A stretch of 64,000 bases of DNA from a bacterium (GTDB lineage Bacteria > Patescibacteriota > Minisyncoccia > Phycocordibacterales > UBA1006). Under the pieces are notes generated by a model. It worked only from the letters and a program-made list of their open reading frames with translations. It was not told the DNA's origin and ran no database searches. Both the position numbers and the translations under genes were made by a program. Positions 2,676 through 19,197 of the stretch are shown in pieces. Each line of letters begins with the position of its first letter. Positions within the stretch are counted from its first letter, which is position 1. The DNA lies in contig JAUIMI010000001.1 in assembly GCA_030433255.1 (NCBI GenBank), forward strand, positions 311,362 to 375,361, in the 5' to 3' direction.

Positions 2676-3170
2676 TTACGAAGCCTGAAGTAGAACATCC
2701 CTCAATTTTAAGGCTTCCAATAATGAAGAGTCCAAGGTTAATGTTGGTTTGTTTTGGTTCAAATTGGATACTTCAGACTGTTGCCCTCCTTTTCTAGACA
2801 TATACTTTCCTGCCAATTCCTGATGACGGTTCGCACATAAATGTGTATAAGTAAATGAAGATTCAGGTTTTACATGTCTCAGAATCACCGAGACGTCTCT
2901 CATATTACCTCCCTGTTCTAAAATGCTATTCGCCTTGCCATGCCTAAAGCTGTGCGGTGTATAATTCTTGTCGATATTGGCATCTTCACACAGTAATTTC
3001 ATCCAACGTTGTACACTTCGCTGCGTGAATGGTTTCTTCGTTTTTGGATTAATCAAAAGTTCATCATGGTCAGTATCGAACCCTAGCCGTATCCCTAAAT
3101 AAATATTGAGCAAGAGAAGAGTAAATACAGCGATAGCTTCGAATTTGAAATAATTAAAGCCTATAACGAA
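2676..3170 (-). pseudogene. tyrosine recombinase / phage-type integrase, N-terminally disrupted
   Basis: The C-terminal catalytic region contains HSFRHG (the HxxR box) and a tyrosine in FTYTHL. A box I-like LNIYLGIRLG is present. The frame begins with TTG and an in-frame stop lies about 20 codons upstream. No core-binding domain can be recovered upstream. Confidence 0.6.
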
Positions 3171-3679: not shown

Positions 3680-6600
3680 CTAATTCAATGATGTAACTCC
3701 ATCTAATGCCACTCCAGAAAGAGCATTTAAATGCCCTGCGGTTTCAGGTCCAATAATTCCATCAAGGATTAAGTTATTAGCTTGTTGGTATGAACGAATA
3801 CCTGCGTAGGTAAGCCCTCCGTAAATACCATCAAATGGTCCAATGGAATGGCCAAGTGAAGCAATACATTCTTGTGCTTGACGTATGTCATTTCCTGTCA
3901 TTCCTCGTTTGATTAATCGTCTGTAATTGATGAAACATTTGGCATCTTCTACAACAGGAGTTGATTCTACTTCTATTACTTCTTTCCCACAACTATTGTT
4001 AATCAATGATCTTGTAATTGGTCCAACATATCCGTCCTGAGTTGTACCTAGATATGCTTGCATACGTTTAATAGCTCCGTCAGTAATTGGTCCCAAGATC
4101 CCATCTACTTTCCCTGATGCAAACCCTAATCTATTCATATGTGCTTGAAGAATTTTAACTTCCGTTATGGTTTCATTTTCCCATGATGAGAAGCTTCCGT
4201 TGCGGTCTCCTACTTTCATGTTTTGATTTAGTATTTGAGATGATGGACATTGTTCCCCTTTTCCAAGCTCTTCAGAAACAGGAGTTCCAAAAATTTCTGC
4301 TAACTTTTCTTTTGATACACGCCTTGAACTTCCTTTTGAAGTTGAAGTCGTAGCATCATCATCCGTTAGCGTTACGATATGTGCTTGGTCAGCAACCGCA
4401 TCATACTCATCAGCACTTGCAGCAGCATTGATGCTAGCGGTGATACTTGCGGTGTCGGTTTGCACAAGGTCATCGTCAACACCTGTGACGGTAACCGTTT
4501 GAGGTGTATCCCAGTTTGCTGGTGTAAAGGTCAGTGAGCTTGGTGATACCGTTGCTTCGTTGGTGTCACTTGAACTCAGGTCGATGACAACATCTGAGGT
4601 TGGTTCAGCATCAAGCACAATGGTGTAGCTTGCTGTTCCTGCGTTTTCTGAAGCTGTTGATGTGTTTGATGATTGAGTGAAATCAGCCATATCATCATCA
4701 GTGATGATAATTGAAGCGGTTGCATCTGCTACCCCATCATAGGTATCATCAGAGGCAGCATCATTTACCGAAATCGTAAGTGTAGCTGAGTCATCACGGT
4801 CAAGATCATCGTTAACTGCTGTTACGGTGATGGTTTGGTTGACGTTCCAGTTACCTGTAGTAAAAGTCAGTGAACTTGGCGAGACGGTGGCTTCCCCAGT
4901 GTCACTTGAACTCAGGTCGATGACAACATCAGTAAGTGGCTGTGAACCCAACCGAACATTGAAACTCCCAGTTCCTGCATTTTCAAGAATGGTTAATCCA
5001 GTTGTGGTAATTCCACTTGGGTCGATGATAATAGAAGCGGCATCATCATCCGTTAGCGTTACGATATGTGCTTGGTCAGCAACCGCATCATACTCATCAG
5101 CACTTGCAGCAGCATTGATGCTAGCGGTGATACTTGCGGTGTCGGTTTGCACAAGGTCATCGTCAACACCTGTGACGGTAACCGTTTGAGGTGTATCCCA
5201 GTTTGCTGGTGTAAAGGTCAGTGAGCTTGGTGATACCGTTGCTTCGTTGGTGTCACTTGAACTCAGGTCGATGACAACATCTGAGGTTGGTTCAGCATCA
5301 AGCACAATGGTGTAGCTTGCTGTTCCTGCGTTTTCTGAAGCTGTTGATGTGTTTGATGATTGAGTGAAAGAAGTAACCACATTTACAATACGTGTTACTT
5401 CGATAGCATCATTTCCAGCCGCATCAGCTACATTATATGTGATAGTGTAACTACCAAGAGTGGATGTATCTACTGGATTTACAGTTACAATATTTACTGT
5501 GATATCTCCATCAAGATTATCTGTTGCAGCCGCTCCAGCATCTGAATATGGAGTATTTACAGGGACTGTTACAGGGTCACTCCCTGTAAGTGTTATAACA
5601 GGGGGTGTTGTATCTTGTAACCATAGTCTATTTTGAAAATCACCATTATCCCCATTGACTACGTAAACATCAATTTCCCCATCATTGTTTACGTCCCCAG
5701 TTGTAACCCCAAATGATTCCCCAGTATCTCCTGTAATGTTGTTTTGTGTAAAGTTTCCAGATCCATCATTTTCCCAAATAATATTCTGAAAACCAAAATA
5801 CATTGCAATAAGGATATCCAAATCACCATCACCATCAAAATCAACAATTTCTGAATCTTGAGCAGTACCTCCATAGTCATTAGCGATATTTTGAGAGGCA
5901 AATGTCCCATCATTATTATTTATCCAAAACCGATTTAGATTAACAGGTTGGTCATCATAGTATGAGGTTAGGTATAAATCAATATCATTATCACCATCTA
6001 TGTCACCGACAACTACTGAACGACCTGGGCAACCATTATTTTGATCCGTACATATATCACCAGTTATGTTACCACTTACAAAAGTTCCATCCCCATTTCC
6101 GAGCCATAATTTGTTCTGGTTATTATACGCTGCTCGTGAAGCGTAAATGTCTAGGTTTCCATCGTTATTAAAATCAGCCATTGCTACATCATCAGCAATA
6201 CCATCTCCTGAAATACTTCCATCAATGAAATTCCCAGTCCCATCATTTATCCAAAGAACATTGGTTCCGCCACTAAATGCTCCTACATAAATATCTAAAT
6301 CGCCATCATTATCAACATCGCCAATAACAACCGAACTAGACCGAGAAGTTGTTGAGTCAGCTGGAATATCGGCATTTGTAAATGTACCATCTCCATTTCC
6401 AAGCCATAGTTTATTTTTACTAAAACTATTGGTGACATAGATATCCAAATTCCCATCACCGTTAAGGTCTGCCATAGCTGCATCGGTAGTGTTTCCTTGG
6501 TCATCACCTAGAATATCAGAATTGGTAAAAGTTCCATCCCTATTTCCGATCCATAATTTATTTTGCTCTAATCGAGCACCTACATATATGTCTAAGTTTC

Positions 6601-6742
6601 CATCGTTGTTAACGTCACCCATTATGGCTGAACGTGAATTTCCTAAATCATTAGGAATATCTTGTGAAACGAATTCGGCATAAGCGCCTTGAGCACTAAA
6701 AGCAAGCGCAAGTAATAAAATAATCTTTGTATAATACTTCAT
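3680..6742 (-). CDS. large secreted FG-GAP/VCBS beta-propeller adhesin-like protein with Ig-like repeats and two C-terminal peptidoglycan-binding domains
   Basis: A signal peptide is present. There are seven or more D-x-N-x-D-G-x-L-D-I-Y-V calcium-binding FG-GAP repeats, a HYR/Ig-like segment, three beta-sandwich repeats of about 110 aa (two identical) and two PG_binding_1-like modules at the C-terminus. Confidence 0.8.
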   Translation of the reverse strand: MKYYTKIILLLALAFSAQGAYAEFVSQDIPNDLGNSRSAIMGDVNNDGNLDIYVGARLEQNKLWIGNRDGTFTNSDILGDDQGNTTDAAMADLNGDGNLDIYVTNSFSKNKLWLGNGDGTFTNADIPADSTTSRSSSVVIGDVDNDGDLDIYVGAFSGGTNVLWINDGTGNFIDGSISGDGIADDVAMADFNNDGNLDIYASRAAYNNQNKLWLGNGDGTFVSGNITGDICTDQNNGCPGRSVVVGDIDGDNDIDLYLTSYYDDQPVNLNRFWINNNDGTFASQNIANDYGGTAQDSEIVDFDGDGDLDILIAMYFGFQNIIWENDGSGNFTQNNITGDTGESFGVTTGDVNNDGEIDVYVVNGDNGDFQNRLWLQDTTPPVITLTGSDPVTVPVNTPYSDAGAAATDNLDGDITVNIVTVNPVDTSTLGSYTITYNVADAAGNDAIEVTRIVNVVTSFTQSSNTSTASENAGTASYTIVLDAEPTSDVVIDLSSSDTNEATVSPSSLTFTPANWDTPQTVTVTGVDDDLVQTDTASITASINAAASADEYDAVADQAHIVTLTDDDAASIIIDPSGITTTGLTILENAGTGSFNVRLGSQPLTDVVIDLSSSDTGEATVSPSSLTFTTGNWNVNQTITVTAVNDDLDRDDSATLTISVNDAASDDTYDGVADATASIIITDDDMADFTQSSNTSTASENAGTASYTIVLDAEPTSDVVIDLSSSDTNEATVSPSSLTFTPANWDTPQTVTVTGVDDDLVQTDTASITASINAAASADEYDAVADQAHIVTLTDDDATTSTSKGSSRRVSKEKLAEIFGTPVSEELGKGEQCPSSQILNQNMKVGDRNGSFSSWENETITEVKILQAHMNRLGFASGKVDGILGPITDGAIKRMQAYLGTTQDGYVGPITRSLINNSCGKEVIEVESTPVVEDAKCFINYRRLIKRGMTGNDIRQAQECIASLGHSIGPFDGIYGGLTYAGIRSYQQANNLILDGIIGPETAGHLNALSGVALDGVTSLN
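4354..4682. repeat. intragenic direct repeat, copy 1 (about 329 bp, identical to 5041..5369)
   Basis: Read by eye, the nucleotide sequence is identical to copy 2, offset by 687 bp (229 codons), inside the 3680..6742 CDS. Confidence 0.85.
5041..5369. repeat. intragenic direct repeat, copy 2 (about 329 bp, identical to 4354..4682)
   Basis: Same evidence as copy 1. The domain copy between the two (about 4700..5040) is diverged. Confidence 0.85.
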
Positions 6743-8863: not shown

Positions 8864-9037
8864 CTTTTTAAATTTTAAGGTTTATTTGATTTGATATTAC
8901 CATGAACTCTTTCTTTTTACTATAAACTGAAAAAGCCTAACACTATATGATTATATATTTACAGGATAACTGTATATTCCCTTGCTTTGTTCAAACACTT
9001 GTTTTAGTTTAGCTTTCATCCATAAAACAAAGAATAC

Positions 9038-10978
9038 ATGAAAAAGCGAGTTGGCGTGTGGATACGAGTTTCCACAAAATTACAGCAGAATTCAGATAGC
9101 CCTGAACATCATTTGCAAAAAGCAAAAATGTACGCAGAGCTAAAAGATTGGGATATTGTAGAAGAGTACCACTTAGAAGCTGTTAGCGGCAAAAGCGTGA
9201 TGGAACACCATGAAGCCCAGCGTATGATGCGAGATATTCAAAGTGGTCATATTGAAGGTTTGATCTTCTCGAAGATTGCCCGCTTTGCTCGTAACGTAAA
9301 AGAACTTTTGGAATTCTCAAAACACTTTCAAAAGTATAAGGGAGATATGATTTCCTTGAGTGAATCTATAGATACCAGTACACCTTCTGGTCGCTTTTTC
9401 TTCACCATGATTTCTGCTATGGGTCAGTGGGAACGTGAAAATATTGTTGAACGTATTAAATCATCTGTAGAAGTCAGAGCCAAAATGGGAAAAATAATGG
9501 GTGGTATTCCATTTGGGTATAAACGAGTAGGTAAAGATGATATGGCACTTGATGAACACGAAGCTCCAATTCGTAAAATGATGTTTGACTTGTTTTTGGA
9601 GCATGAACGGCATGCAACCGTAGCCAACATTCTTAACGAAAAAGGATATCGCACCAAACGAAAAAGTAAATTCACCGGTACTACGGTTAAACGACTATTA
9701 CAAGACCCAACTGCAAAAGGTATTAGACGTTCTCATTGCACTAAGATAGATGAAAATGGAAAAACCGTAATGAGGGATAAGTCGGAATGGTACATCCACG
9801 AAGCACCACGAATCGTATCAGACGAAGTATGGGACACCGTAAATGATATTATCCGTAAACAGGAAAAAGAAAAGGTACAACCATTAAATAAAAAGGTGCA
9901 TTTGTTTACAAGCTATTTATTTTGTGAATGCGGTGGCGGTATGTATGTGCCATCGTCAAACCCAAAATACACTTGTAAGAAGTGTAAACGCAAAATCCAT
10001 GTCGAAGATATTGAAGCGATCTTTAAAGAACAGCTCACCGAGTTCATCATTTCAGAAGAAGAAGTAAAACGTTACTTTAATGGCACACACACCATCATCA
10101 GAGAAAAGCAACAAGAGATTGAAAATGTGAAATCAGAAATACTAAAACTTGAAGATAAGATTGAAAAGCTATTTGAACTTCACGAAAAAGGGCAAATTGA
10201 GACTGATAGATTTAAAGATTTCTACGATAAACCAAACAACCAAGTGCAACAATTAAAACTCAGAATCCCACGAATTGAAGGCGAAATCTATGCCTTGAAA
10301 GACCAATTTAAATCAAGTGGATATATTATTGAAGAAGCTCGTTCGTTATATGAAAACTGGCATAAACTCACCAAAAGGCAAAAACGTAACATCATAGAAA
10401 TCATTACCGAAAAGATAGTGGTATCAGAGCAGGAAGTGAACATCACACTTAACTATATTCTTCCAAAGACACCATCTTTGAAAACGACTGCAAATGGTAC
10501 TCATGGACTATACTCAATGAGTACCATTTGCAGTTTTAAACTGAAACCAAAGTTACGCAAAATACCTAAAGCAAAACCCTTTACCCACTCACTTGGAGAG
10601 TACATCCGACACGAAAGGCTAAAAAAGCACATTTCACAAGAAGCATTAGCAAAACAGTTTGGTGTTAATGGAGTTGCTTTATCTATGTGGGAACTAAAAC
10701 GTAAGCCAGTACATCCAAAACGTTTTCAATCGGTGATTGATTTTCTTGATTACGTTCCTAAAAAGTCATCGAAGTTTGATAAGCTAGGAACACGCACTCA
10801 ATTATGGCGATTACAAAATGAGGTGAGCCTCCAAGAGTTTTCAGAATTGGTACATGTTCCCATAGAAGAAATTACACGAATAGAAACAGCTAGATATTGT
10901 AAAATTGACAGTAAGGTATCTGAAATCATCAACGCATTCATCAAACACTCTATTTCTTCCCACGAAGTGCTTTCATAA
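9038..10978 (+). CDS. large serine recombinase (resolvase/invertase N-terminal domain, recombinase domain and zinc ribbon) with a C-terminal HTH extension
   Basis: The N-terminal VGVWIRVSTKLQ carries the serine nucleophile context. A Cys4 zinc ribbon (CECGGG ... CKKCKRK) and coiled-coil segments follow. One or two XRE-like HTH motifs sit at the C-terminus (ISQEALAKQFGVNGVALSMWE). Confidence 0.85.
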   Translation: MKKRVGVWIRVSTKLQQNSDSPEHHLQKAKMYAELKDWDIVEEYHLEAVSGKSVMEHHEAQRMMRDIQSGHIEGLIFSKIARFARNVKELLEFSKHFQKYKGDMISLSESIDTSTPSGRFFFTMISAMGQWERENIVERIKSSVEVRAKMGKIMGGIPFGYKRVGKDDMALDEHEAPIRKMMFDLFLEHERHATVANILNEKGYRTKRKSKFTGTTVKRLLQDPTAKGIRRSHCTKIDENGKTVMRDKSEWYIHEAPRIVSDEVWDTVNDIIRKQEKEKVQPLNKKVHLFTSYLFCECGGGMYVPSSNPKYTCKKCKRKIHVEDIEAIFKEQLTEFIISEEEVKRYFNGTHTIIREKQQEIENVKSEILKLEDKIEKLFELHEKGQIETDRFKDFYDKPNNQVQQLKLRIPRIEGEIYALKDQFKSSGYIIEEARSLYENWHKLTKRQKRNIIEIITEKIVVSEQEVNITLNYILPKTPSLKTTANGTHGLYSMSTICSFKLKPKLRKIPKAKPFTHSLGEYIRHERLKKHISQEALAKQFGVNGVALSMWELKRKPVHPKRFQSVIDFLDYVPKKSSKFDKLGTRTQLWRLQNEVSLQEFSELVHVPIEEITRIETARYCKIDSKVSEIINAFIKHSISSHEVLS

Positions 10979-13900
10979 TAATATTAGTTATCGAAGCCTG
11001 CTTATTGGTGTCATTGTCTGTTTTGTAATCCACGTTTACACGGTAGCCACGTACACGCTTTACTTTGGTTTTTGGTTGAATTAAGGCATCAAGATACAGC
11101 AGTAATTCTTCAGATTTGAAGAAGTGGATTTTTAAGTGTTGTTTTTTAGAAATATTCTTTAAGGCTTGTTCCTTGATATTCTTAAGATGCTTTTCGTCCT
11201 CTGAAATCATATATACCAAAGAGTAGTTATCATCCAAGCACTTTTGAATATTTTGTACTTCATAATCTACTCTATTAGTTACTGAAATTTCAATGGCAAT
11301 ACGAATATCATCTTTTAACAGCGATACATCAACTTTGCCACCATTTAATGTTGAATCTTCAAGTGTTGCCTTAAACCCTCGCTGGAGAGCCATAGAACGA
11401 ATGTAATTTTGAATTGAACGATGCTGACGGACAATCTCCTGTTCTTCGGCTTGTTGTAAGTATTTTTCTTTACGAGCTTCTAAATCATCAGTCTTTTCTA
11501 AATTTTCAGTTTTTGGAGATGGTTTTGTTTCAGTAATGGGCTTTTCAACTTCACTTTTCTTATCTTCAACAATTACGGGTTCAACAGATTTTTCAATTTT
11601 GGGTTCTGTTGTTTTAGTTTTGAGTTTAGTCTTTTGGGGTGTTTGCTTAGGAAGCAAGGAAGCTAACAACTCATCAAGTTCTGCTTTAGATTTGCTGTAG
11701 CTTTTTCTTGTATGAGCAACAATACTATCTCTATTTACTTCGGCATTAGTTTCAGCTATAGACAATGGAAAGGTTGAAATATTAAAATCATCACTTGAAG
11801 AACCTACGCGCATAATGGCTTGTCCGATACCGAGACTCTGTAAATCATCTTGCTCAAAATATGAAAAACCAGACTCCAATCGTTTCGCATCGCTATCGCC
11901 TAGACGAAAACAAATCCGTGTTTTTGGATTTGATAAAACAGAGTTCAACAATTTTGCATCTTCAATTTGAGCCAATTCTTGATGAGCAATGGTAATACCT
12001 AAACCATATTTTCTAGCACCACTTAATATACGTTCAATACTTGGTGTGATGAAATTTTGGAACTCATCTAGGTATAACATAAAAGGTTTACGGCTATCCT
12101 TACCTTTAGATTGCCTTGCCAATGCCGATTGATTAAATTTTGCCAAGAACAATGAGCCTAATAAATAGGAATTCTGTTCTCCAATAAGGCCTTGCGATAA
12201 TTTCAGTAAAACAATTTTGTTGGTATTAAGGCAATTTGCTACATCAACACCTTTGTTTTGAGCTAACATATAGCGCACCAATTTTGGACGTAAAAATGTA
12301 TCTATACGAGTAAGTAGTGGTGCAATACCTTTTCGTACCAAAGGATATTCATTATTCCAATAGTAATGTAACGAAGGGTCGTTGACCGTTTTTAAGTATT
12401 GAACTCTATAAGGTTCTTCAAGTAGAAAACGCTTTAATTCAATAAGCGTTCCACCTTGAGTGCTCTCTAACATGGTATTTACAGCGTTTTGCAATACCGC
12501 AGTCATATTATCTCCCCAAGCAGTGGCATGACGTTTAAATGCCGAAACTAAATCTGATGAGAGTACAATTTTTTCAGCATCGGTATGCGCTTCTAATAGA
12601 TTGAATCCAATAGGGAAGTCAGCATCGGAAGGGTCTATTAAAACTACATCATTAATCCTGTTTTCTGGAATACGCTCTAAAATATCATCAATGATGTCGC
12701 CATGTGGATCGAACATAGCACAACCCATTCCATTTTCAATATCGGCAAGCATCATATTTGCCAGTAGAGTACTTTTACCAACGCCTGTGGCTCCTATTAC
12801 GTGTGTATGGGACAAACGTGTTTCATAGCTTAATTGAACAGGAATATCTTCTTGATTATGGGTATTGACTCCAATTAGGATGCCTTGATTGTCCTTTTGG
12901 TGTATACGTTTGGTTTTACCAACTTGCCATTGTAGTTTTTTAGAAACCACCGTTTTATTGGGATAGTGCAAAAAGGTATTCAGTTCCTTGGAATTCAATA
13001 CAAAGCCCAATCGGTTACTGAGGCGATGATGTAGATTGTATTTATGGAAATCATAATCATACCCTTCATTGGATAAAGGGATGAGTTTGTTATGCTGAGA
13101 GGTTGAAACTGCCGAAATACTTCGTGCTAACTCTTGTGCCAGATACTGACTCCTGTAATTGTCCTTGCCTTGAGTAGCTATACGCATCACCACTGAAAAT
13201 AGTGGATGTGCTATTTTTTCTTTGGCACACTGTGGCATTTCAGGAGCATCCGAAAAAAAAGAACCGCCAGCACCATCATTTACCGAATACATTGTATCCT
13301 TTGCTAAAGGAGAACTAATACCTTTAAACAGAATTTGAAAAACAGCAACATCATCATCCTGCAAAGCTTCCATAGTTGCGATGACTGAAGTTAATGGGTC
13401 TATGTTAAAAGAATCAGACGTAACTATGCTTCGCATATATTCACTATTAAGCCCAAAGTCTGCAATAGCGATATCATTTTTGTTTGAAAATCCAAAATCA
13501 TCAACTTCAATAGTTTTAATTATAACCATTGGAAAGTATGCCGATAATTGCGATTTCAATCTGCCTCTATCCTGTTTACTACATACCATTTGAATTTGGA
13601 TAGTATCTGAATTACCAATAATTTCAAAGGACAGTAAATGTTCTGTAAAGGATAGTAGATTGAGAAGTTCGATATTCCTGCTTGGATTGATTTCAGTCCC
13701 ATACGGAAAGGAAATTGAGAGACCAACAAGTTGAGGCTTTTCTGAAACTTCAAGAAAACGAGGTTTAACCTCTATTAAATCTTCTTCTGGTTCTTCTTCT
13801 TTAGGAGGAGCAAGTAATTTGGTTACTTGTTTGAATAATGAAGGTGCTCTACCATCATCTTGTATTGAAGGTCGGTTTTGGCTTACATGCTGAAAGGGAA

Positions 13901-14009
13901 CATAGGGAACCTCAATATCAATAGGAGTATCGAAATTGTAATACCCACGAAATCGATACTCCCAATTATAGAAATTAAGGGTTGCTTGTTCACTTCTTGT
14001 TAAACCCAT
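10950..14009 (-). CDS. FtsK/HerA/TrwB-superfamily P-loop ATPase (DUF87 or type IV coupling-protein-like) with an unknown 400-aa N-terminal domain, a K/E/P-rich linker and a C-terminal possible nuclease-like domain
   Basis: Walker A GATGVGKST is present, then FDPHGD, Walker B LYLDEFQNF and an AHQ motif. No TM helices are evident. The C-terminal roughly 120 aa show a D...E-I-S pattern weakly reminiscent of PD-(D/E)xK folds. Confidence 0.65.
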   Translation of the reverse strand: MGLTRSEQATLNFYNWEYRFRGYYNFDTPIDIEVPYVPFQHVSQNRPSIQDDGRAPSLFKQVTKLLAPPKEEEPEEDLIEVKPRFLEVSEKPQLVGLSISFPYGTEINPSRNIELLNLLSFTEHLLSFEIIGNSDTIQIQMVCSKQDRGRLKSQLSAYFPMVIIKTIEVDDFGFSNKNDIAIADFGLNSEYMRSIVTSDSFNIDPLTSVIATMEALQDDDVAVFQILFKGISSPLAKDTMYSVNDGAGGSFFSDAPEMPQCAKEKIAHPLFSVVMRIATQGKDNYRSQYLAQELARSISAVSTSQHNKLIPLSNEGYDYDFHKYNLHHRLSNRLGFVLNSKELNTFLHYPNKTVVSKKLQWQVGKTKRIHQKDNQGILIGVNTHNQEDIPVQLSYETRLSHTHVIGATGVGKSTLLANMMLADIENGMGCAMFDPHGDIIDDILERIPENRINDVVLIDPSDADFPIGFNLLEAHTDAEKIVLSSDLVSAFKRHATAWGDNMTAVLQNAVNTMLESTQGGTLIELKRFLLEEPYRVQYLKTVNDPSLHYYWNNEYPLVRKGIAPLLTRIDTFLRPKLVRYMLAQNKGVDVANCLNTNKIVLLKLSQGLIGEQNSYLLGSLFLAKFNQSALARQSKGKDSRKPFMLYLDEFQNFITPSIERILSGARKYGLGITIAHQELAQIEDAKLLNSVLSNPKTRICFRLGDSDAKRLESGFSYFEQDDLQSLGIGQAIMRVGSSSDDFNISTFPLSIAETNAEVNRDSIVAHTRKSYSKSKAELDELLASLLPKQTPQKTKLKTKTTEPKIEKSVEPVIVEDKKSEVEKPITETKPSPKTENLEKTDDLEARKEKYLQQAEEQEIVRQHRSIQNYIRSMALQRGFKATLEDSTLNGGKVDVSLLKDDIRIAIEISVTNRVDYEVQNIQKCLDDNYSLVYMISEDEKHLKNIKEQALKNISKKQHLKIHFFKSEELLLYLDALIQPKTKVKRVRGYRVNVDYKTDNDTNKQASITNIIMKALRGKK

Positions 14010-14014
14010 GTCAT

Positions 14015-14599
14015 CTATCTGATAAATACATCATTTAACATAGGCTTACGCTCTGCCTCACTGATAGAGCGGATTCCTTTATCGTTGGTAATGTCATCAA
14101 TGACTTTTAACACCGAAGATTGAGCGTAGCTCATAAACATACTGGCAGTATCTATCCTGTAATAGGTTACTGGATACAATTTTCTTGCAAGCCAACCACC
14201 TATAAATGGAATTTTAGCAACCAATATCTTGCCAATGGAATCTTTATACAATAACCACCAAGACACGAAAAAGCCATGACCAAACTTGGCTCCACAAATA
14301 TCATATTGGTAATCTTTCCATATAGCTCGTAAATAGATGCGAGAATGAGACATCGCTCCTCCTTCTTTAATGAATTTTTCTTTGATATTGATTTTTGTAA
14401 TGCCGTGAGATTCCAGTTCGGTTTTTAATAAGGCATAAAACTCTTTAGGTGAGTATTCAAAGTTATCAATAAGGGTACTCCACCGTGAGTGATAGTTTTT
14501 TCTGGTTTTACTGAAAATAAATCTTAAAACTAGAAAAGCAACAATTCCAGCTAGGACATACATCCCATATTTTGTTAGATAAAAAGTGAATTCATTCAT
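14015..14599 (-). CDS. hypothetical membrane-anchored protein
   Basis: It has a single N-terminal TM helix. It lies 5 bp upstream of the ATPase gene and 26 bp downstream of the AlaX-like gene on the same strand. Confidence 0.45.
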   Translation of the reverse strand: MNEFTFYLTKYGMYVLAGIVAFLVLRFIFSKTRKNYHSRWSTLIDNFEYSPKEFYALLKTELESHGITKINIKEKFIKEGGAMSHSRIYLRAIWKDYQYDICGAKFGHGFFVSWWLLYKDSIGKILVAKIPFIGGWLARKLYPVTYYRIDTASMFMSYAQSSVLKVIDDITNDKGIRSISEAERKPMLNDVFIR

Positions 14600-14625
14600 A
14601 GGGTTTCAAGTTTTAGTTGTTAGAC

Positions 14626-15534
14626 TTATATTAATTGTGTCTTTATTGATAAGGTTTTTTCCTCTTCATTATAGAAGCAGTCTACAGTAACTTTAGGTAA
14701 TTGGGACAAAGAGCTAACATGAGTTCCTCCACAAGGGATAGTAACAAATCTATCATTTATTTTTACTTTAAAATTTCGTTTAGCCCCTAATTGAATATTA
14801 TCTCCGAACATACTTACTTTAGAAGATTTATTGATATCTATAAGTTTGTTTAAACTACTCGACAACTCAATAGAAAACTTTTTAAAATCTAAGCTTTTGA
14901 ATTTAACTAAGTCAAACCCTTTCTTTGATAAACTTTTACCAATACGATATACATCAGTAGCATAATAAGTGTAGATTTTTGATTTCTGTATTGCTAAGGC
15001 ATCAAAATTTGGATTATTAAGATCATCTTTAAAATCCACCTCTTTTTTCCAAAATGAAGCTAGTTCTTCATTAAGAATTATTGACATCAAATGAACGGTA
15101 GTGTGTGTTTTAGAGAGATTTTCTCTAAATTTTTCGTCTACATATAACTCGCAATCTAAATCAATTAATGAGTTTTCATTTAATGAGTTTAAATCGTCAA
15201 TAATAAAATGCCCTATCATGGCAATATATATACCTTCTTGAAGCCCTTTATAAAAAGCACTTTTACTTTTGGGAAATACATTCTTTCTAGTATTTATGTC
15301 TATAATTATAATACGAGAGTCTTCAACCTTATATGTTTTTCCTTGAATGACTATTTTTCCTTTATCTCCTGGTTGATCTCCACCTAGATAATCTTCAGGG
15401 TGAAATGGACTCATGTCTGTACAAACATATAGACCCTCAGGAAAAGAAAAGACACCTTTTATTTTAGCTTTAGAATAGGTTGAATTTTCATAATATAATG
15501 CTTGGCTAGTTGTTGTTCTATTTGAGATTTTCAT
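14626..15534 (-). CDS. AlaX-M-type alanyl-tRNA synthetase-like trans-editing domain protein
   Basis: The N-domain signature is ALYYENS ... FSFPEGLYVCTDMSPFHPEDYLGGDQPGDKG, of the LYY ... FYP.GGGQP.D.G type. The editing-site zinc motifs HTTVHLM (HxxxH) and CGGTHV (CxxxH) are separated by about 115 aa, as in AlaRS/AlaX editing domains. Confidence 0.7.
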   Translation of the reverse strand: MKISNRTTTSQALYYENSTYSKAKIKGVFSFPEGLYVCTDMSPFHPEDYLGGDQPGDKGKIVIQGKTYKVEDSRIIIIDINTRKNVFPKSKSAFYKGLQEGIYIAMIGHFIIDDLNSLNENSLIDLDCELYVDEKFRENLSKTHTTVHLMSIILNEELASFWKKEVDFKDDLNNPNFDALAIQKSKIYTYYATDVYRIGKSLSKKGFDLVKFKSLDFKKFSIELSSSLNKLIDINKSSKVSMFGDNIQLGAKRNFKVKINDRFVTIPCGGTHVSSLSQLPKVTVDCFYNEEEKTLSIKTQLI

Positions 15535-16553
15535 AAGTTAATTATATAAGGATTAGTACTTTTTACAAACTGCATCTTCACTTTTGACCTAAGAGTCACT
15601 ATTCTTTGAAGCCAACGATCGTGTCCATCAAATTTTGCGGGGAACAATGATCTACCATGGACTGCTTTATCATTATCTATAATTAATAAATCGCCTGGTT
15701 TAAGAGCTATCTTTATAGCGCTTTCATGTATAAGTAATTTTAATTCTTTAAATGCTGTTTCTGCTTTTTTTGTTAAGAACTTGGTAGTATATAATGGATC
15801 ATACCTCAAGGTAAGTGTCTTTTTAAATTCTAATATTGACACCTTAACTTCTTTTTGAACACCATGGGCTTCGTCTGAAGAAATAATAAAATTGGGCATT
15901 AGTAATTGTTCAATTGTTTGTGGTTTTAACTTATAAAAGTCTATTTTAGAAATTAACGTATAAGCTTCTGGTGTTCCTCTTAAACATAATAATAGTATAT
16001 GATTGCACCTAAGGTTGTGAAATGCATCTTCTGTATGCCAATCTAAATAGACTCTCCCCGTTCCTAATTGTTTATTTTGGTCTTTTATTTTGGGAAAAAG
16101 ATTTTGTATTACAAGTCCTTTTCTTTGCGAAAAATAGCCATAAGGATATCCTATTAAATTAGCTATAGCAATAAGAATGATTTCACTGTAAGATGTCATT
16201 TTTAAATCTAAATTTCCAGTTGGCCCAAGATGTTGGTCTAGCAATAAATTTTCAATTAAAAAAGCACCTATAGTATTAGATTTATTTGCAAACTCAACAA
16301 TAGAATCTTCTAATTCATTAGGAAGCACATCTGAAACATCATCACTCGCCCTAGAAATATTGAAGTAATTTTTTTGATTAAACTTTTTTTCCGCTTTGAT
16401 GGAAACTTTATTTTTTATGAACTTATTTTCATCAGATGACAGTCTATAAAAAGATTCAAATTTTGTTAGCTGAATTTTTTCATGAATTTTTCTTAAGTCT
16501 TTCACTATATCTCTTTTTTTAGTAAAATTAGATTTATAACTATTTGTAACCAA
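15531..16553 (-). CDS. Fe(II)/2-oxoglutarate-dependent oxygenase of the TauD/TfdA/clavaminate-synthase-like family (putative amino-acid hydroxylase)
   Basis: WHTEDAFH (an HxE/D facial-triad motif) is followed by LLLCLR. The C-terminal GDLLIIDNDKAVHGRS ... RWLQR supplies the second His and an Arg, as in TauD/CAS-like enzymes. A 4-bp ATGA overlap links it to the downstream AlaX-like gene. Confidence 0.6.
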   Translation of the reverse strand: MVTNSYKSNFTKKRDIVKDLRKIHEKIQLTKFESFYRLSSDENKFIKNKVSIKAEKKFNQKNYFNISRASDDVSDVLPNELEDSIVEFANKSNTIGAFLIENLLLDQHLGPTGNLDLKMTSYSEIILIAIANLIGYPYGYFSQRKGLVIQNLFPKIKDQNKQLGTGRVYLDWHTEDAFHNLRCNHILLLCLRGTPEAYTLISKIDFYKLKPQTIEQLLMPNFIISSDEAHGVQKEVKVSILEFKKTLTLRYDPLYTTKFLTKKAETAFKELKLLIHESAIKIALKPGDLLIIDNDKAVHGRSLFPAKFDGHDRWLQRIVTLRSKVKMQFVKSTNPYIINL

Positions 16554-16630
16554 TACGGATTTTCCCTTAATTTTTAATGCTGATTATCTGAAAGACAATA
16601 ATTTCAAGTAGATTTACTTCATTATTCGAA

Positions 16631-17320
16631 ATGATGAACATCAGATTATTAATATTCGTAATCTTTCTTGCTCTTGGAATTGGATGCCATGCGGGCTCTT
16701 ATGCCTTCAATAATGAAAAACTTTTAGAACTATTATCGCAGGCTGAAAAACTGGAACAGAACAAGGAGTATTCAACCGCATTGAATGTATATAATGAGGC
16801 TCTGAAAATTGCATCCAAAGAAGAGCGTATTGAAGACGCCAGTTACATTTACAATAAAATAGGATTAGTCTATTACAGACAAAAGCAATACGAAACAGCA
16901 AAATCCAATTTTAAGACCAGCATCCTAAAATCCAATATTTCTAATAGTGCTGCAGATTCTTATTTCAATCTCTCGCTGATTTACAGAAAACAAAACTCAA
17001 AGGATAGCCTTCTATGGTCATTGAATAGGTCTTTGGAAATTTATGGTGGTTTGGAAGATAGCAACAGTAAATTTTCAACCTATTCCAAAGCTGGAATTCT
17101 CTATAAACAGCTGGGTATGTATGACAAAGCCATTGAATATTTGCTTTTGGCTTATGACGGATTAGATAATAAAGAAAATGAGTCCCAAAAAACTTCGGTT
17201 TGCTACACCATTGGTGAGACGCAACGCCTTTTGGGAAATTTAGACATTGCTAAAACTTATCTAAAAGAAAGCCTTCAGATTAGAAATAGACTTAATGATT
17301 CTCTTAAAACGTCTTCATAG
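16631..17320 (+). CDS. TPR-repeat lipoprotein
   Basis: A lipobox (LALGIGC) is present. Several 34-aa TPR-like repeats with an A/Y/L pattern follow. Confidence 0.6.
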   Translation: MMNIRLLIFVIFLALGIGCHAGSYAFNNEKLLELLSQAEKLEQNKEYSTALNVYNEALKIASKEERIEDASYIYNKIGLVYYRQKQYETAKSNFKTSILKSNISNSAADSYFNLSLIYRKQNSKDSLLWSLNRSLEIYGGLEDSNSKFSTYSKAGILYKQLGMYDKAIEYLLLAYDGLDNKENESQKTSVCYTIGETQRLLGNLDIAKTYLKESLQIRNRLNDSLKTSS

Positions 17321-17622
17321 TTAGCAGTGTTTTCGGCTATGGCTAATGCTTGACCACTATGAACTATATCATTATCCTTTACGAGAAGATTGCTAATTTC
17401 ACCACTCATTCTTGCATATTCCTTTTGAGGTGGAATTGTAGTAGTTATTATTACCTGTGACTGAATAATATCAGGATACTTAATATACCATGTTGCTAAA
17501 AACAATAAAAATATAACTACAAAAATTACCGTTATCCCCCATTTTAAAAAAACATTTGGTTGCTTTTCTAAAATTTCTCTAATTTGCTCACTGTGATTAT
17601 CGATTTCGTCAATTTTCATCAT
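17275..17622 (-). pseudogene. N-terminal fragment of an HlyD-family bacteriocin or peptide secretion accessory protein
   Basis: A TM helix is followed by IIQSQVIITTT-PPQKEYARMSGEISNLLVKDNDIVHSGQALA, typical of the first 110 aa of LcnD/ComB-type HlyD proteins. The ORF ends after 115 aa and overlaps the convergent TPR gene. Confidence 0.5.
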
Positions 17623-17876
17623 TAACTTCCTAATTCTAATTGATCTTTAACTAACTTATAATAGACTCCTTTATTATTTACTAACTTTTGATGATCACCT
17701 TCCTCAATTATTTCTCCTTTTTCTAAACAGCTCCCTAAATAATCTTTAATCTTAGCCCATGTACCATCACACCCATGACAATCAGACCAGTCACCTCCTT
17801 GAACTTTTTCAAGTACATCACTAGTGTTTACGTTTTCTGCTTTTGCTTTAAAAGCTTCAAGACTTAATCTCTTCAT
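17622..17876 (-). CDS. double-glycine-leader peptide-like ORF fused in frame to the C-terminal tail of a bacteriocin-type ABC exporter (remnant)
   Basis: The N-terminus MKRLSLEAFKAKAENVNTSDVLEKVQGG resembles a GG-type leader. The Cys-rich DWSDCHGCDGTWAKIKDYLGSC follows. The last 34 aa (LEKGEIIEEGDHQKLVNNKGVYYKLVKDQLELGS) match the conserved C-terminus of C39-peptidase ABC exporters. Confidence 0.45.
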   Translation of the reverse strand: MKRLSLEAFKAKAENVNTSDVLEKVQGGDWSDCHGCDGTWAKIKDYLGSCLEKGEIIEEGDHQKLVNNKGVYYKLVKDQLELGS

Positions 17877-17962
17877 AATAAAAAGTTTTATATAGTTTAC
17901 TTGCCTACTCTTTTAGCTTTTCGGCTCCCGCTATTATTATTTTCTAAATAAACGAAAAATAT

Positions 17963-17979
17963 TGGTCATTATTGACCAA
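17963..17979. promoter_or_regulatory. palindromic operator-like site TTGGTCA-tta-TTGACCAA overlapping a putative -35 element
   Basis: This is a near-perfect inverted repeat in the divergent intergenic region between the GG-leader ORF and the XRE regulator gene. TTGACC is followed about 15-17 nt later by TATATT. Confidence 0.4.
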
Positions 17980-18044
17980 ATAATTAAAAATTTATATTGT
18001 TAACTGTTTTTTGAGTTTCTCATAGAGTTTTTTCAGGTAATAAC

Positions 18045-18350
18045 ATGTTATGTTTTATCTTGCAATTGCTATTAATCATGTTTCCTATGAACTCATTACC
18101 CTTTGAGATTCTCTTTGAAGTTCTCGGCAATCGTATTCGTGATCTTCGACAATCAAAAAAGCTTTCACAAATTGAAGTAGCAGCAAGATGTGGACTGGAC
18201 GTTTCTAACTATAATAAAATTGAATTTAACAAAAGGCCACCATCACTACGTACGCTATTTAAAATTGCCATTGCTCTAGATGAACCTATCTCTAATTTCT
18301 TTAATGATGAAGTGTTTCTCTCATTTATCGAAGAACATGTGAAAGCTTAA
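18045..18350 (+). CDS. XRE-family helix-turn-helix transcriptional regulator
   Basis: HTH_3 signature LSQIEVAARCGLDVSNYNKIE is present. The likely true start is an internal Met at about 18087 (MNSLPFEIL). Confidence 0.7.
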   Translation: MLCFILQLLLIMFPMNSLPFEILFEVLGNRIRDLRQSKKLSQIEVAARCGLDVSNYNKIEFNKRPPSLRTLFKIAIALDEPISNFFNDEVFLSFIEEHVKA

Positions 18351-18572
18351 TAAAAATGTTGTTTTTAATAAATCAGTCTATCAAGTCTAAAGTTGTAATC
18401 TCATTAAATAGCTTTTAAATATGCTTGCTTTTTGGTTCTAGCAGTATTGTGTAGCAATGGCATTAAGTAAGTATTAGGCTAATGTCCACAGATATACTTT
18501 AAATTCTATTTTTTTAATTACGAAACCAAAAAAAAGCGTTAGCTTTTTAAAACAGCCAAACCAAAGAGATAG

Positions 18573-18899
18573 CTATAACCAGCTATCTCTTTGTAATTGC
18601 TTTCGTTCTTGTTCCTGTTTTATTTGTTCTATTCGGATATGGTCTGGAATGCGTTCATTTGCGTTGTACTTTGGTAAAGAAATTTCTTTTGTAGAACGCA
18701 TTTTTTGCGTTTCGAATTGTGAATGAGATATCCAGTCCCGTCGCTTAACCTTTCCAAACTCATCTCGCCATCCCAAAAGATTCCTCACAATCTTAAGATA
18801 CACACGCACCGCAGATCCACTCATACTTCCAATATGCTTATCAAAAAAAGCATTAGGCACTGGAGTCGTATTATTCAGTCGCATGAGCTTCAAAATCAA
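18573..18899 (-). CDS. truncated phage/plasmid replisome-organiser-like protein (N-terminal winged-helix domain only)
   Basis: VPNAFFDKHIGSMSGSAVRVYLKIVRNLLGW resembles Phage_rep_org_N/DnaD-like N-domains. It is only 108 aa. A 12-bp stem hairpin (AAAGAGATAGCT ... AGCTATCTCTTT) overlaps its 3' end. Confidence 0.35.
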   Translation of the reverse strand: MILKLMRLNNTTPVPNAFFDKHIGSMSGSAVRVYLKIVRNLLGWRDEFGKVKRRDWISHSQFETQKMRSTKEISLPKYNANERIPDHIRIEQIKQEQERKQLQRDSWL

Positions 18900-19197
18900 T
18901 TACTGGTAAATTATCATTATGATTTGGAAAGATCATAAAATTAGTATCTGGTTGATGATACAACTGTAAAAACCAACCGCCGTTGTTGGTTACTTTTACA
19001 ACACCTACTTTATGATAAATATGTTTGTCGTTATCAACCTTATTAACAGTTTTACGAGTAACAACGTTATAAAATTTAGTCATACTAAAATTCAATTTTA
19101 TGTACGTTTTAACCTTAGGGAAAACCCAATACAAATCAAAATCGAAAATATTTTGTTTCAATAGAAAGTCGCAAAACCCTTGACTTTTGTCGGACAA
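18871..19197 (-). CDS. hypothetical protein
   Basis: The ORF shows no similarity I can recognise. It is adjacent to the right-hand repeat. Confidence 0.3.
   Translation of the reverse strand: MSDKSQGFCDFLLKQNIFDFDLYWVFPKVKTYIKLNFSMTKFYNVVTRKTVNKVDNDKHIYHKVGVVKVTNNGGWFLQLYHQPDTNFMIFPNHNDNLPVIDFEAHATE

Follow-up and report, generated by a model that had tools for sequence, protein, structure and literature searches.

In recent years the stand-alone relatives of the alanyl-tRNA synthetase editing domain have been connected with the biosynthesis of non-proteinogenic amino acids. A class of gene clusters that join an Fe/2OG amino-acid beta-hydroxylase to a cognate AlaX-family tRNA deacylase, for self-protection, was published in 2026 (Millar et al., Nat Chem, PMC13149037). 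AlfC is an Fe/2OG Met beta-hydroxylase and its partner AlfB is an AlaX-family deacylase that prefers 3R-hydroxy-Met-tRNAMet, while FuzA, an Arg 3R-hydroxylase, has the deacylase FuzB and ATP-grasp ligases as partners (PMC13149037). Around 11% of the stand-alone AlaX genes mark clusters of this kind and the remaining 89% serve primary metabolism (PMC13149037).

The window analysed here, a stretch of 64,000 nucleotides, contains four successive ORFs on the minus strand (Table 1) encoding an Fe(II)/2-oxoglutarate oxygenase, an AlaX-like protein, a small membrane protein (TM194) and a large ATPase. The earlier note on this DNA had presented them as one tight system located on a mobile element. Their coordinates, strand and spacings (-4, 26 and 5 bp, the first being a 4-nt ATGA overlap between the oxygenase and AlaX-like genes) are reproduced by the ORF list of the window, the four domain calls (oxygenase, AlaX-like, small membrane protein and HerA/TrwB-like ATPase) hold in profile searches, Foldseek and hydropathy analysis, and the mobile-element setting is supported by the gene of a large serine recombinase immediately next to the locus. 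A search for terminator-like sites between the four genes found none. An independent Tara/ENA contig (L001/L036) carries this gene quartet in unchanged order, at 47-62% amino acid identity, so that the arrangement is more than a chance one and does co-occur outside this genome.

Nevertheless, the gene-order statistics do not sustain the idea of a single system. In a backbone sample of 25 related loci (23 of them from a genome collection; there are about 970 ATPase homologs in all), TM194 and the ATPase stand together every time, and 23 of the 25 loci lack the oxygenase and AlaX-like genes, which appear in two of the 25 and in none of the 23 genome-collection loci. With moderate confidence, the locus is regarded here as a composite, made of an ncAA two-gene cassette as cargo and a mobile-element backbone (TM194, ATPase and recombinase). 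The four genes would resemble one operon because transcription of the cassette probably continues into the backbone genes.

Table 1. Features of the integrative element and its cargo, in window positions.
Feature	Position	Strand	Length	Remarks
Integrative element, roughly 10 kb	8992..19135			minimum extent; homology to L014 from 8992 and to L015/L021 until 19135
Large serine recombinase (Resolvase, Recombinase, Zn ribbon) with C-terminal XRE-type HTH domains	9038..10978	+	646 aa	
VirB4/TrwB/HerA-clade P-loop ATPase	10950..14009	-	1019 aa	backbone gene; profiles and Foldseek
C-terminal domain of ATPase	11085..11486	-	aa 842-975	alpha-beta-beta-beta-alpha-beta; model and homolog alignment
N-terminal alpha/beta domain of ATPase	12975..13742	-	aa ~90-345	modelled, pLDDT 80-95
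TM194, one N-terminal transmembrane helix (hydropathy)	14015..14599	-	194 aa	backbone gene, invariant upstream partner of ATPase
Cargo slot of this element copy	14601..18531			nucleotide homology breaks and domains
AlaX-like and oxygenase genes in cargo slot	14626..16553	-		GC 0.289
AlaX-M-like stand-alone tRNA-editing (deacylase) homolog	14626..15534	-	302 aa	N-terminal beta-barrel, Zn site, basic insertion
Fe(II)/2-oxoglutarate oxygenase, clavaminate-synthase-like / VioC-OrfP-AsnO-KDO clade	15531..16553	-	340 aa	TTG start; profile and PDB matches
TPR gene, truncated kinase N-terminus, in cargo slot	16631-17320	+		domain search
HlyD N-terminal fragment in cargo slot	17275-17622	-		
Chimeric ORF in cargo slot	17622-17876	-	84 aa	
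XRE HTH gene in cargo slot	18045-18350	+		
RepO-like remnant	18573-19197			profile match

The oxygenase matches Pfam TauD and the NCBIfam GntD/VioC/CS1-like profiles (E 2e-53 to 3e-30). Its substrate specificity cannot be taken over from these families because it scores below their curated equivalog cut-offs (182 vs 345 bits for GntD, 136 vs 419 for VioC and 106 vs 450 for CS1). Among PDB entries it matches OrfP (4m23, E 6.5e-30) and 2og5 (E 2.3e-24 over residues 78-338). The iron triad H173-x-E175...H299 is present together with R301 and R313, and all these residues are invariant in five AlaX-linked homologs. To our knowledge, every member of the VioC/OrfP/AsnO/KDO clade characterised so far takes a free amino acid as its substrate. 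The protein is predicted from its sequence to be a free L-amino-acid (beta-)hydroxylase and, by family, it would most likely act on the C-beta of a polar or basic residue; no substrate can be transferred to it from VioC, OrfP, AsnO, KDO1 or clavaminate synthase because no alignment is obtained for the loop that recognises the substrate side chain. An exhaustive HMMER search at E<=1e-30 gave 57 cluster representatives among 1.84 billion, the nearest with 48% identity. The lineage is sparsely populated, and this compact and testable pair may make a new hydroxy-amino acid.

The family profile of the AlaX-like protein matches AlaX-M in the PDB (2e1b, E 1.4e-15). Foldseek relates its AF2 model (pLDDT 95.2) to the AlaRS editing region (2zze, E 1.6e-15) and to AlaX-M (2e1b/9iuw, TM 0.78-0.79), and the modelled protein has the architecture of AlaX-M, with an editing core plus an N-terminal beta-barrel. 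The zinc motifs H144-TTV-H148 (HxxxH) and C268-GGT-H272 (CxxxH) are invariant across 52 homologs, and a basic insertion (Y196-RIGKSLRKKGF, within residues ~160-210) is conserved in the family. The score against NCBIfam AlaXM (NF040865) is 32.9 bits, the cut-off being 300, and only the N-terminal 60 residues are covered; judged by these matches, the protein is best described as a divergent subfamily, other than canonical AlaX-M. Neither AlfB/AlfC nor FuzA/FuzB are among the 90 AlaX-like matches, so that the pair may belong to another AlaX subfamily. In about 75 of 80 metagenome loci of this 290-300-aa family, mostly of high GC, the gene stands alone without an oxygenase, and the hydroxylase adjacency is therefore limited to the closest relatives.

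The oxygenase/AlaX-like pair is a module of its own. At least four further lineages have it in the absence of the ATPase, its neighbours there being MFS or EamA exporters, ATP-grasp ligases or an extra ArgRS, and the adjacent homologs are 28-38% (oxygenase) and 30-42% (AlaX-like) identical to those of the window. The two genes adjoin in Hyphomicrobiales (L003); in a gammaproteobacterial MAG (L117) they are accompanied by an ATP-grasp gene, a 120-aa gene and an MFS gene, all of them overlapping or tightly spaced; in L119/L120 an EamA exporter gene lies between them, and L125 carries an extra ArgRS. An ATP-grasp ligase is also found in L122, another relative of the pair, and one family member is placed within an NRPS cluster on an Azospirillum plasmid. 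Conserved adjacency of an AlaX-type gene and a hydroxylase gene, the mark of deacylase-containing clusters, is found in the window, L001/L036, L003, L117, L119/L120 and L125. No transporter was found near the pair in the window and L001, and no intact dedicated regulator either. By gene content and description, and by its recurrent adjacency, the pair matches by analogy the class of Millar et al.; as far as the pair is concerned, the statement in the earlier note that no system with this combination had been described is outdated, since the class has been shown (PMC13149037). Of the three functions proposed there, the one with the best support is production of a hydroxylated amino-acid antimetabolite by a cell that its own built-in proofreading protects, and it corresponds to that experimental class. 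The oxygenase would hydroxylate a free L-amino acid, the host synthetase could charge the product onto tRNA, and the AlaX-like Zn hydrolase would deacylate the mischarged tRNA, by which the producer would be spared mistranslation.

The backbone genes belong to an integrative element of roughly 10 kb that is found widely among Flavobacteriaceae and is common in marine Flavobacteria; no description of this family was found. In the window the element is flanked by the gene of a T9SS-sorted protein and the rplI terminator. The recombinase, which would integrate and excise the element, matches PF00239 (E 1e-28), PF07508 (E 2e-18), weakly Zn_ribbon_recom, and the PHROG 95 integrase (E 2e-104). Its gene is convergent with that of the ATPase, with 29 bp of overlap at the 3' end of the latter. 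In 20 of the 23 genome-collection loci the ATPase is immediately followed by the recombinase or its HTH part. TM194 gave no match to any family or structure in family profiles, PADLOC, PHROG and the PDB, and copies with at least 90% identity are present in Mesoflavibacter, Yeosuana, Winogradskyella and Xanthomarina.

The ATPase matches TrwB_AAD_bind, DUF87, TraG-D_C and PHROG 5156 (E 2e-67), and its Walker A (G406ATGVGKS413) and Walker B (D648-E649) motifs are invariant among homologs. Foldseek retrieves VirB4/TrwK, HerA and TrwB (7o42, E 2.6e-16; TrwB, TM 0.63-0.67), structural comparison aligns the protein full-length to VirB4 (7o42/8rtd) over about 840-870 columns, and the model suggests that the N-terminal domain, without a match in Pfam, is VirB4-NTD-like. 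In the C-terminal domain E884, D894, E907 and K923 are invariant; the topology and these residues would fit a putative PD-(D/E)xK nuclease-like domain. Mrr_cat matches this tail weakly (E 0.011, in 2 of 14 homologs) and a PDB sequence search with the domain gave no match. On a Bacillus plasmid, a remote homolog of the ATPase adjoins a relaxase-like gene and stands first in a Tcp-like conjugation operon. The window element was found to have neither a T4SS nor a relaxase or oriT, and none of these is a conserved neighbour within the 10-kb flanks of related loci; a DNA-transfer role is therefore an analogy. The protein could be a DNA translocase of the VirB4/T4CP type, which TM194 would perhaps hold at the membrane. 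Related to this, the suggestion of a DNA-transfer ATPase carrying metabolic cargo described the relation between the two halves of the locus correctly, but its transfer component stands by analogy.

The cassette occupies a swappable cargo slot directly upstream of TM194. The 92-93% identity of the backbone DNA to Mesoflavibacter ends at window position 14600, 1 bp before the TM194 start codon; homology to L013/L016 ends there, and homology to L015/L021 resumes at 18532, a point that in those loci lies 88 bp from TM194. GC content changes in a step at the TM194 boundary, from 0.35-0.37 in the backbone to 0.289 in the pair. Elsewhere the slot contains three ThsB-like TIR genes and a caspase, RHS toxins, or nothing, usually beside a TPR-histidine kinase and a response regulator. 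The element family can be summarised as a membrane protein, a VirB4-like ATPase with a putative nuclease-like domain and a serine recombinase, with a defined slot that collects conflict genes. The four-gene order is kept at ~50% identity in L001, so some functional link between pair and backbone is conceivable.

The tight spacing and the order of the four genes preserved at about 50% identity in L001, the TIR/caspase genes in the same slot of sister elements and the match of the ATPase core to PADLOC mad8 (E 7e-21; it also matches mad3, E 0.0014) could be read, as one proposal of the earlier note had it, as a single tRNA- or aminoacyl-tRNA-directed defence or abortive-infection unit, in which the ATPase senses or processes invading DNA and the pair stops translation. 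This is very improbable, considering that the pair is missing from 23 of the 25 backbones, and the backbone from at least four of the pairs. A MADS system would need other mad genes, none of which is present, the neighbours having no mad matches; PADLOC returned nothing for TM194 or for either protein of the pair, and nothing but generic HTH matches for the neighbours; a search of 2.9 million IMG/VR contigs found no member of the ATPase family, and nothing ties the family to phage sensing; and homologous pairs sit beside exporters and ligases, in contexts of biosynthetic and not of defence logic. A different idea is that the AlaX-like protein is an ordinary housekeeping-type Ser/Gly-tRNAAla trans-editing factor with an unrelated oxygenase as neighbour by chance. 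The predominance of primary metabolism among stand-alone AlaX proteins (89%; PMC13149037) and the many family members without an oxygenase neighbour would fit it, but homologous oxygenases adjoin the gene in five lineages, with both genes diverging in parallel, start/stop overlaps occur in the window and in L117, and the gene lies in mobile cargo with the same GC content as the oxygenase. We consider it very unlikely.

Another possibility is that the AlaX-like protein is biosynthetic, either freeing a product from a tRNA carrier on which the amino acid has been hydroxylated or otherwise modified, or hydrolysing a small-molecule aminoacyl ester and leaving tRNA untouched. The closest relatives are also paired with radical SAM/SPASM enzymes (L005-7, L086, L129) and one with an ArgRS paralog, both of which fit a tRNA-dependent route; moreover, the conserved basic insertion YRIGKSLRKKGF is absent from canonical AlaX-M, and 'metal-dependent hydrolase' is the sole annotation of many family members. 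On the other hand, an extra aaRS copy is a classic self-resistance marker, and the free amino acids used by every characterised member of the oxygenase clade also count against this role. In the two tested precedents the substrate of the dioxygenase is the amino acid in its free form, and mischarged tRNA is what the AlaX-type enzyme edits (PMC13149037). A biosynthetic AlaX-like protein is considered rather unlikely.

Returning to the composite of ncAA cassette and mobile-element backbone, the recently described hydroxylase/deacylase pairing would extend to marine Bacteroidota, and also to a stripped-down two-gene form that is exchangeable cargo of a small integrative element. As cargo, the pair could be passed on by horizontal transfer, weapon and immunity together in one ready-made unit. 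It is conceivable, although on the whole doubtful, that it serves the element as a metabolic toxin-antidote, the translatable amino-acid analogue poisoning neighbours, or daughter cells from which the element has been lost, while only carriers of the cognate deacylase are immune. If so, the pair would be the functional counterpart of the RHS toxins and TIR/caspase sets in the same slot of sister elements, and it would be the first mistranslation-based addiction or allelopathy module.

With regard to known systems, the ATPase shares with TrwB, TrwK and the TcpA-like 'DUF87' protein of Bacillus plasmids the P-loop fold, the full-length VirB4 structural match and the residence on mobile elements, and a small membrane protein gene lies immediately upstream, TM194 in this case and VirB3 in that of VirB4. 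It differs from T4CP/VirB4 proteins in the extra, putatively PD-(D/E)xK-like C-terminal domain after a Lys/Glu-rich linker, in its large serine recombinase companion and in having no T4SS, relaxase or oriT nearby. The oxygenase has in common with VioC, OrfP, AsnO, KDO1 and clavaminate synthase the HxE...H facial triad, the C-terminal DRWL-R arginine and the sequence family, at ~30% identity and with every equivalog cut-off missed. The AlaX-like protein shares the two-domain fold and the HxxxH/CxxxH zinc site with AlaX-M (PH0108, PDB 2e1b; P. furiosus 9iuw) and the AlaRS editing domain, whereas identity is 16-19%, the window protein is ~85 residues longer, including the insertion, and its N-terminal motif is FHPxDxxxxDQPxDxG instead of FYPxGGGQPxDxG.

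Regarding the proposed function, CtdA, a canavanyl-tRNAArg deacylase, is likewise a stand-alone editing protein guarding translation from a non-proteinogenic amino acid, but it has a B3/B4, PheRS-editing-like fold and guards a consumer and not a producer (PMC10018355). The fuscazine cluster of Microbispora fusca (FuzA/FuzB with ATP-grasp FuzC/FuzH) combines a VioC-like hydroxylase with an AlaX-type deacylase, as in the window, where its ligase and hydrazine-forming genes are missing and the expected end product would be a free hydroxy-amino acid and no peptide. The AlfC/AlfB cluster of Alcaligenes faecalis has four genes, including a transporter and a transcriptional regulator, neither of which is intact in the window. 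AlfC is a Met hydroxylase whereas the window oxygenase is closest to Arg/Asn/Lys hydroxylases, and in the window the pair forms the cargo of a mobile element of Flavobacteriaceae, the main text of PMC13149037 naming neither that phylum nor mobile elements. Both are minimal clusters in which an Fe(II)/2OG amino-acid hydroxylase adjoins a stand-alone AlaX-family tRNA deacylase, and the logic of AlfC/AlfB, by which a translatable ncAA is made and then edited off tRNA, is the one proposed for the window pair.

The four minus-strand ORFs that the earlier note had proposed as one operon (10950-16553) match its coordinates exactly, and they belong to two modules: a backbone, formed by the gene of the 194-aa membrane protein (TM194), the ATPase gene and a serine recombinase gene, and a pair composed of an oxygenase gene and an AlaX-like gene. 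The two genes of the pair overlap via ATGA and are followed by gaps of 26 nt (AlaX-like/TM194) and 5 nt (TM194/ATPase), and no terminator-like hairpin was found between the four genes. The recombinase gene is convergent with the ATPase gene, which it overlaps by 29 bp. A sigma-70 promoter scan was uninformative: it yielded 32 sites vs 46 expected, and promoters of Bacteroidota differ.

Features of the locus and of its surroundings (positions in the window)
Feature	Position	Strand	Remarks
Tyrosine integrase, C-terminal fragment	2676-3113	-	
FG-GAP/peptidoglycan-binding protein	3680-6742	-	1020 aa; GC 0.42 patch vs host 0.33
Large serine recombinase	9038-10978	+	646 aa
ATPase	10950-14009	-	1019 aa
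TM194	14015-14599	-	194 aa
AlaX-like	14626-15534	-	302 aa
Oxygenase	15531-16553	-	340 aa
TPR protein, signal-peptide-like N-terminus	16631-17320	+	229 aa; 52% identity to sister-element locus L031
HlyD-family N-terminal fragment, then 84-aa ORF	17275-17876	-	fragment of 115 aa
Replication-initiator-O-like gene	18573-19197	-	two overlapping 108-aa ORFs; 88-90% identical to the L015/L021 copy

The division into modules comes from the comparison of 25 backbone loci (23 from a species-representative genome collection, the window and one Tara contig). In all 25, TM194 directly precedes the ATPase, and in 20 of the 23 genome-collection loci the ATPase is followed by a serine recombinase or by the HTH part of one, whereas the oxygenase and the AlaX-like gene are absent from every one of these 23; the reading of the four genes as one system is therefore not supported. 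The position upstream of TM194 is occupied by three ThsB-like TIR genes and a caspase in L013, L022 and L025, by 1330-aa RHS toxins with T9SS/SusE-like partners in L023, L026, L028-30 and L035, and by no cargo in L016, L019, L020 and L027. The genes of this variable slot usually lie between the gene of a TPR-HisKA_3 kinase and that of a response regulator of the LuxR or LytTR type.

In the window, the DNA is 92-93% identical to that of Mesoflavibacter zeaxanthinifaciens over the ATPase and TM194, and this identity stops at 14600, a single base pair short of the start codon of TM194. Homology with L015/L021 restarts only at 18532, in a stretch that lies 88 bp from TM194 in those two loci; therefore, 14601-18531 is the cargo slot. 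It is a mosaic, in which the pair is accompanied by the truncated N-terminus of a TPR kinase, an HlyD fragment, a small chimeric ORF and an XRE gene. Both cargo genes have a GC content of 0.289, vs 0.35-0.37 for the backbone and 0.333 for the host. TM194 copies at least 90% identical are found in four genera, so the backbone moves. The element extends at least from 8992 to 19135, between the gene of a T9SS-sorted protein and the rplI terminator, and no att sites were recognised by eye in its flanks. Together with L013-L035, it belongs to a family of Flavobacteriaceae integrative elements whose core comprises TM194, a large serine recombinase and a VirB4-like ATPase of ~1000 aa that has a nuclease-like tail, and in which conflict-type cargo (TIR/caspase, RHS or the oxygenase/AlaX-like pair) gathers in one slot. 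A literature search for a Flavobacteriaceae serine-recombinase/DUF87 element found no description of it.

The TPR protein corresponds, in truncated form, to the N-terminal part of the TPR-HisKA_3 kinases (~550-700 aa) of the sister elements. The 84-aa ORF starts like a double-glycine bacteriocin leader, whilst its C-terminus resembles that of an ABC transporter, and it is probably, as the HlyD fragment, a scar of a deleted bacteriocin-export locus. The replication-initiator-O-like gene is a single 175-aa ORF in L015/L021, and its split form points to a frameshift in, or decay of, the replication gene of the element. On the left side of the element, the region resembles an island that is older and has decayed. 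L014 (JALEGN010000004.1, 19 kb), a contig assigned by binning to Candidatus Paceibacterota, contains the same element in the same convergent layout, with amino-acid identities of 92% (recombinase) and 73% (ATPase), which reflects either mis-binning or cross-phylum transfer. A further gene set recurs upstream of the core in L015, L019, L021, L024 and L033: RadC, a Dam-type methyltransferase, three small genes of unknown function and a 390-aa TrwB-like ATPase, which shares 29-35% identity with the core of the 1019-aa ATPase.

TM194 has a single N-terminal transmembrane helix, and no family was detected for it in Pfam, NCBIfam, PHROGs, the PDB profile search or profile-profile comparison. The P-loop core of the ATPase is of the TrwB/DUF87/TraG-D_C type, and its AF2 model (pLDDT 76.5) aligns over ~850 columns to VirB4/TrwK, with further matches to HerA and TrwB. 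The C-terminal end consists of a disordered Lys/Glu-rich linker and an alpha-beta-beta-beta-alpha-beta domain with invariant E884, D894, E907 and K923, which looks PD-(D/E)xK-like, the sequence evidence being weak; neither the N- nor the C-terminal domain had a convincing match in Pfam or the PDB profile search. PF26449 appears as a precomputed annotation on some homologs. Flavobacteriaceae are rich in members of the ATPase family (970 matches at E<1e-10, the best 120 of the 970 being 55-78% identical), and a remote homolog on a Bacillus plasmid heads a Tcp-like conjugation operon and adjoins a relaxase-like gene. A phage or satellite origin was dropped because no ATPase match was found in IMG/VR, scanned with the single sequence and with the alignment. 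Since TM194 and the ATPase resemble VirB3/VirB4 or a membrane-anchored coupling-protein pair, and in view of the plasmid homolog, they would most simply be the DNA-handling machinery of the element, working with the serine recombinase; no relaxase or T4SS lies near them, so this role is proposed by analogy.

With regard to the pair, both folds predicted by the earlier note were borne out. The oxygenase is a clavaminate-synthase-like Fe(II)/2OG enzyme that matches Pfam TauD and NCBIfam GntD (E 2e-53), VioC and CS1, the NCBIfam matches all far under the equivalog cut-offs, and keeps H173, E175, H299 and R313 intact. Among solved structures it comes nearest to two L-Arg hydroxylases (OrfP and VioC), the Asn oxygenase AsnO and the Lys hydroxylase KDO1. 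When 1.84 billion representatives were searched exhaustively with HMMER, only 57 reached E<=1e-30, the nearest with 48% identity. A substrate readout from its "DPD"-like loop was dropped, because Lys hydroxylase and clavaminate synthase align equally well with this motif, which is therefore not diagnostic. The AlaX-like protein is a homolog of AlaX-M-type editing domains: the profile of its 52-sequence family matches PDB 2e1b (E 1.4e-15), its AF2 model (pLDDT 95.2) gives TM 0.78-0.79 to AlaRS editing regions and AlaX-M, and the zinc motifs HxxxH and CxxxH are invariant in the family. It represents a divergent subfamily, ~85 residues longer than AlaX-M, in which a basic insertion, YRIGKSLRKKGF, is conserved.

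The relatives closest to the AlaX-like protein are repeatedly encoded next to a homologous oxygenase, without the ATPase. L003 (Hyphomicrobiales) contains only the pair, with a frameshifted oxygenase; this gene (L003/L004, 8883-9990) is split over two frames in the NCBI assembly of the MAG as well as in the Logan assembly, and it is either a pseudogene or an assembly error common to both. In L117, a gammaproteobacterial MAG, oxygenase, AlaX-like, ATP-grasp, 120-aa and MFS genes overlap or are closely spaced, whilst L119/L120 hold oxygenase, EamA exporter and AlaX-like genes amid integrase, IS605 and HepT/MNT genes. L122/L123 comprise ATP-grasp, p120-like, AlaX-like and PLP-enzyme genes. In L125 (1198-6360) the AlaX-like gene is directly upstream of an ArgRS paralog, followed by a 184-aa gene, with a 597-aa TauD-fusion oxygenase gene on the opposite strand and an ArdC-like gene nearby, an arrangement that resembles a twofold self-protection at the tRNA level, carried by a mobile element and directed against an arginine analogue. 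The paired oxygenases are 28-38% identical to that of the window and among themselves, and the AlaX-like proteins 30-42%; both genes diverged in parallel. Other relatives adjoin radical SAM/SPASM enzymes (L005-7, L086, L129), one lies within an NRPS cluster on an Azospirillum plasmid, and more distant members, mostly actinobacterial, stand alone. The pairing with a radical SAM/SPASM maturase-like gene, the second that is conserved, occurs in three lineages (L005, 7790-10912; L086; L129, 367-2504), one being an IMG/VR contig, and in L005 it comes after the gene of a 370-aa protein that weakly matches a CAP12/Pycsar-type TIR (E 8e-5). High-GC metagenome loci, whose ORF maps are noisy with spurious antisense ORFs, were used through tblastn only.

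Taking these features together, the oxygenase would hydroxylate a free L-amino acid, a host synthetase could mischarge the product onto tRNA, and the AlaX-like zinc hydrolase would strip it off again. Transcription of the pair presumably runs on into TM194 and the ATPase, because the pair is inserted between the backbone genes and their driver. There is a small but real chance that the element uses the pair as a toxin-antidote based on mistranslation. The distribution of pair vs backbone speaks against the assumption that the four genes are a single defence system, as does the lack of a defence-model match for three of the four proteins: PADLOC, run on all four and their neighbours, reported no system, only a mad8-like match to the ATPase core and generic HTH matches, and the tRNA-directed defence put forward in the earlier note is left unsupported. 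A biosynthetic AlaX-like protein, with tRNA as carrier, has a low but appreciable probability, and a purely housekeeping one is unlikely because the adjacency to the oxygenase is recurrent.

A literature search for AlaX and clavaminate synthase gave nothing relevant. Millar et al. (Nat Chem 2026, PMC13149037) have described that ~11% of stand-alone AlaX genes mark clusters for non-canonical amino acids. Among them, AlfC is an Fe/2OG enzyme for methionine beta-hydroxylation, adjoined by the AlaX-type AlfB, which preferentially removes hydroxymethionine from tRNAMet; FuzA, which shares 35% identity with VioC, is an arginine 3R-hydroxylase that has the deacylase FuzB and ATP-grasp ligases as neighbours; radical-SAM neighbourhoods are listed too (PMC13149037). 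The pair of the window, which has neither an exporter nor an intact regulator beside it, fits this class, the Alf and Fuz clusters being compared by description. Therefore, the second of the three functions envisaged at the outset, a hydroxylated amino-acid antimetabolite with proofreading as self-protection, is essentially right, and the combination of oxygenase and AlaX can no longer be considered undescribed. The main text of PMC13149037 makes no mention of mobile elements or Bacteroidota, and what is new for the pair is its mobile setting.
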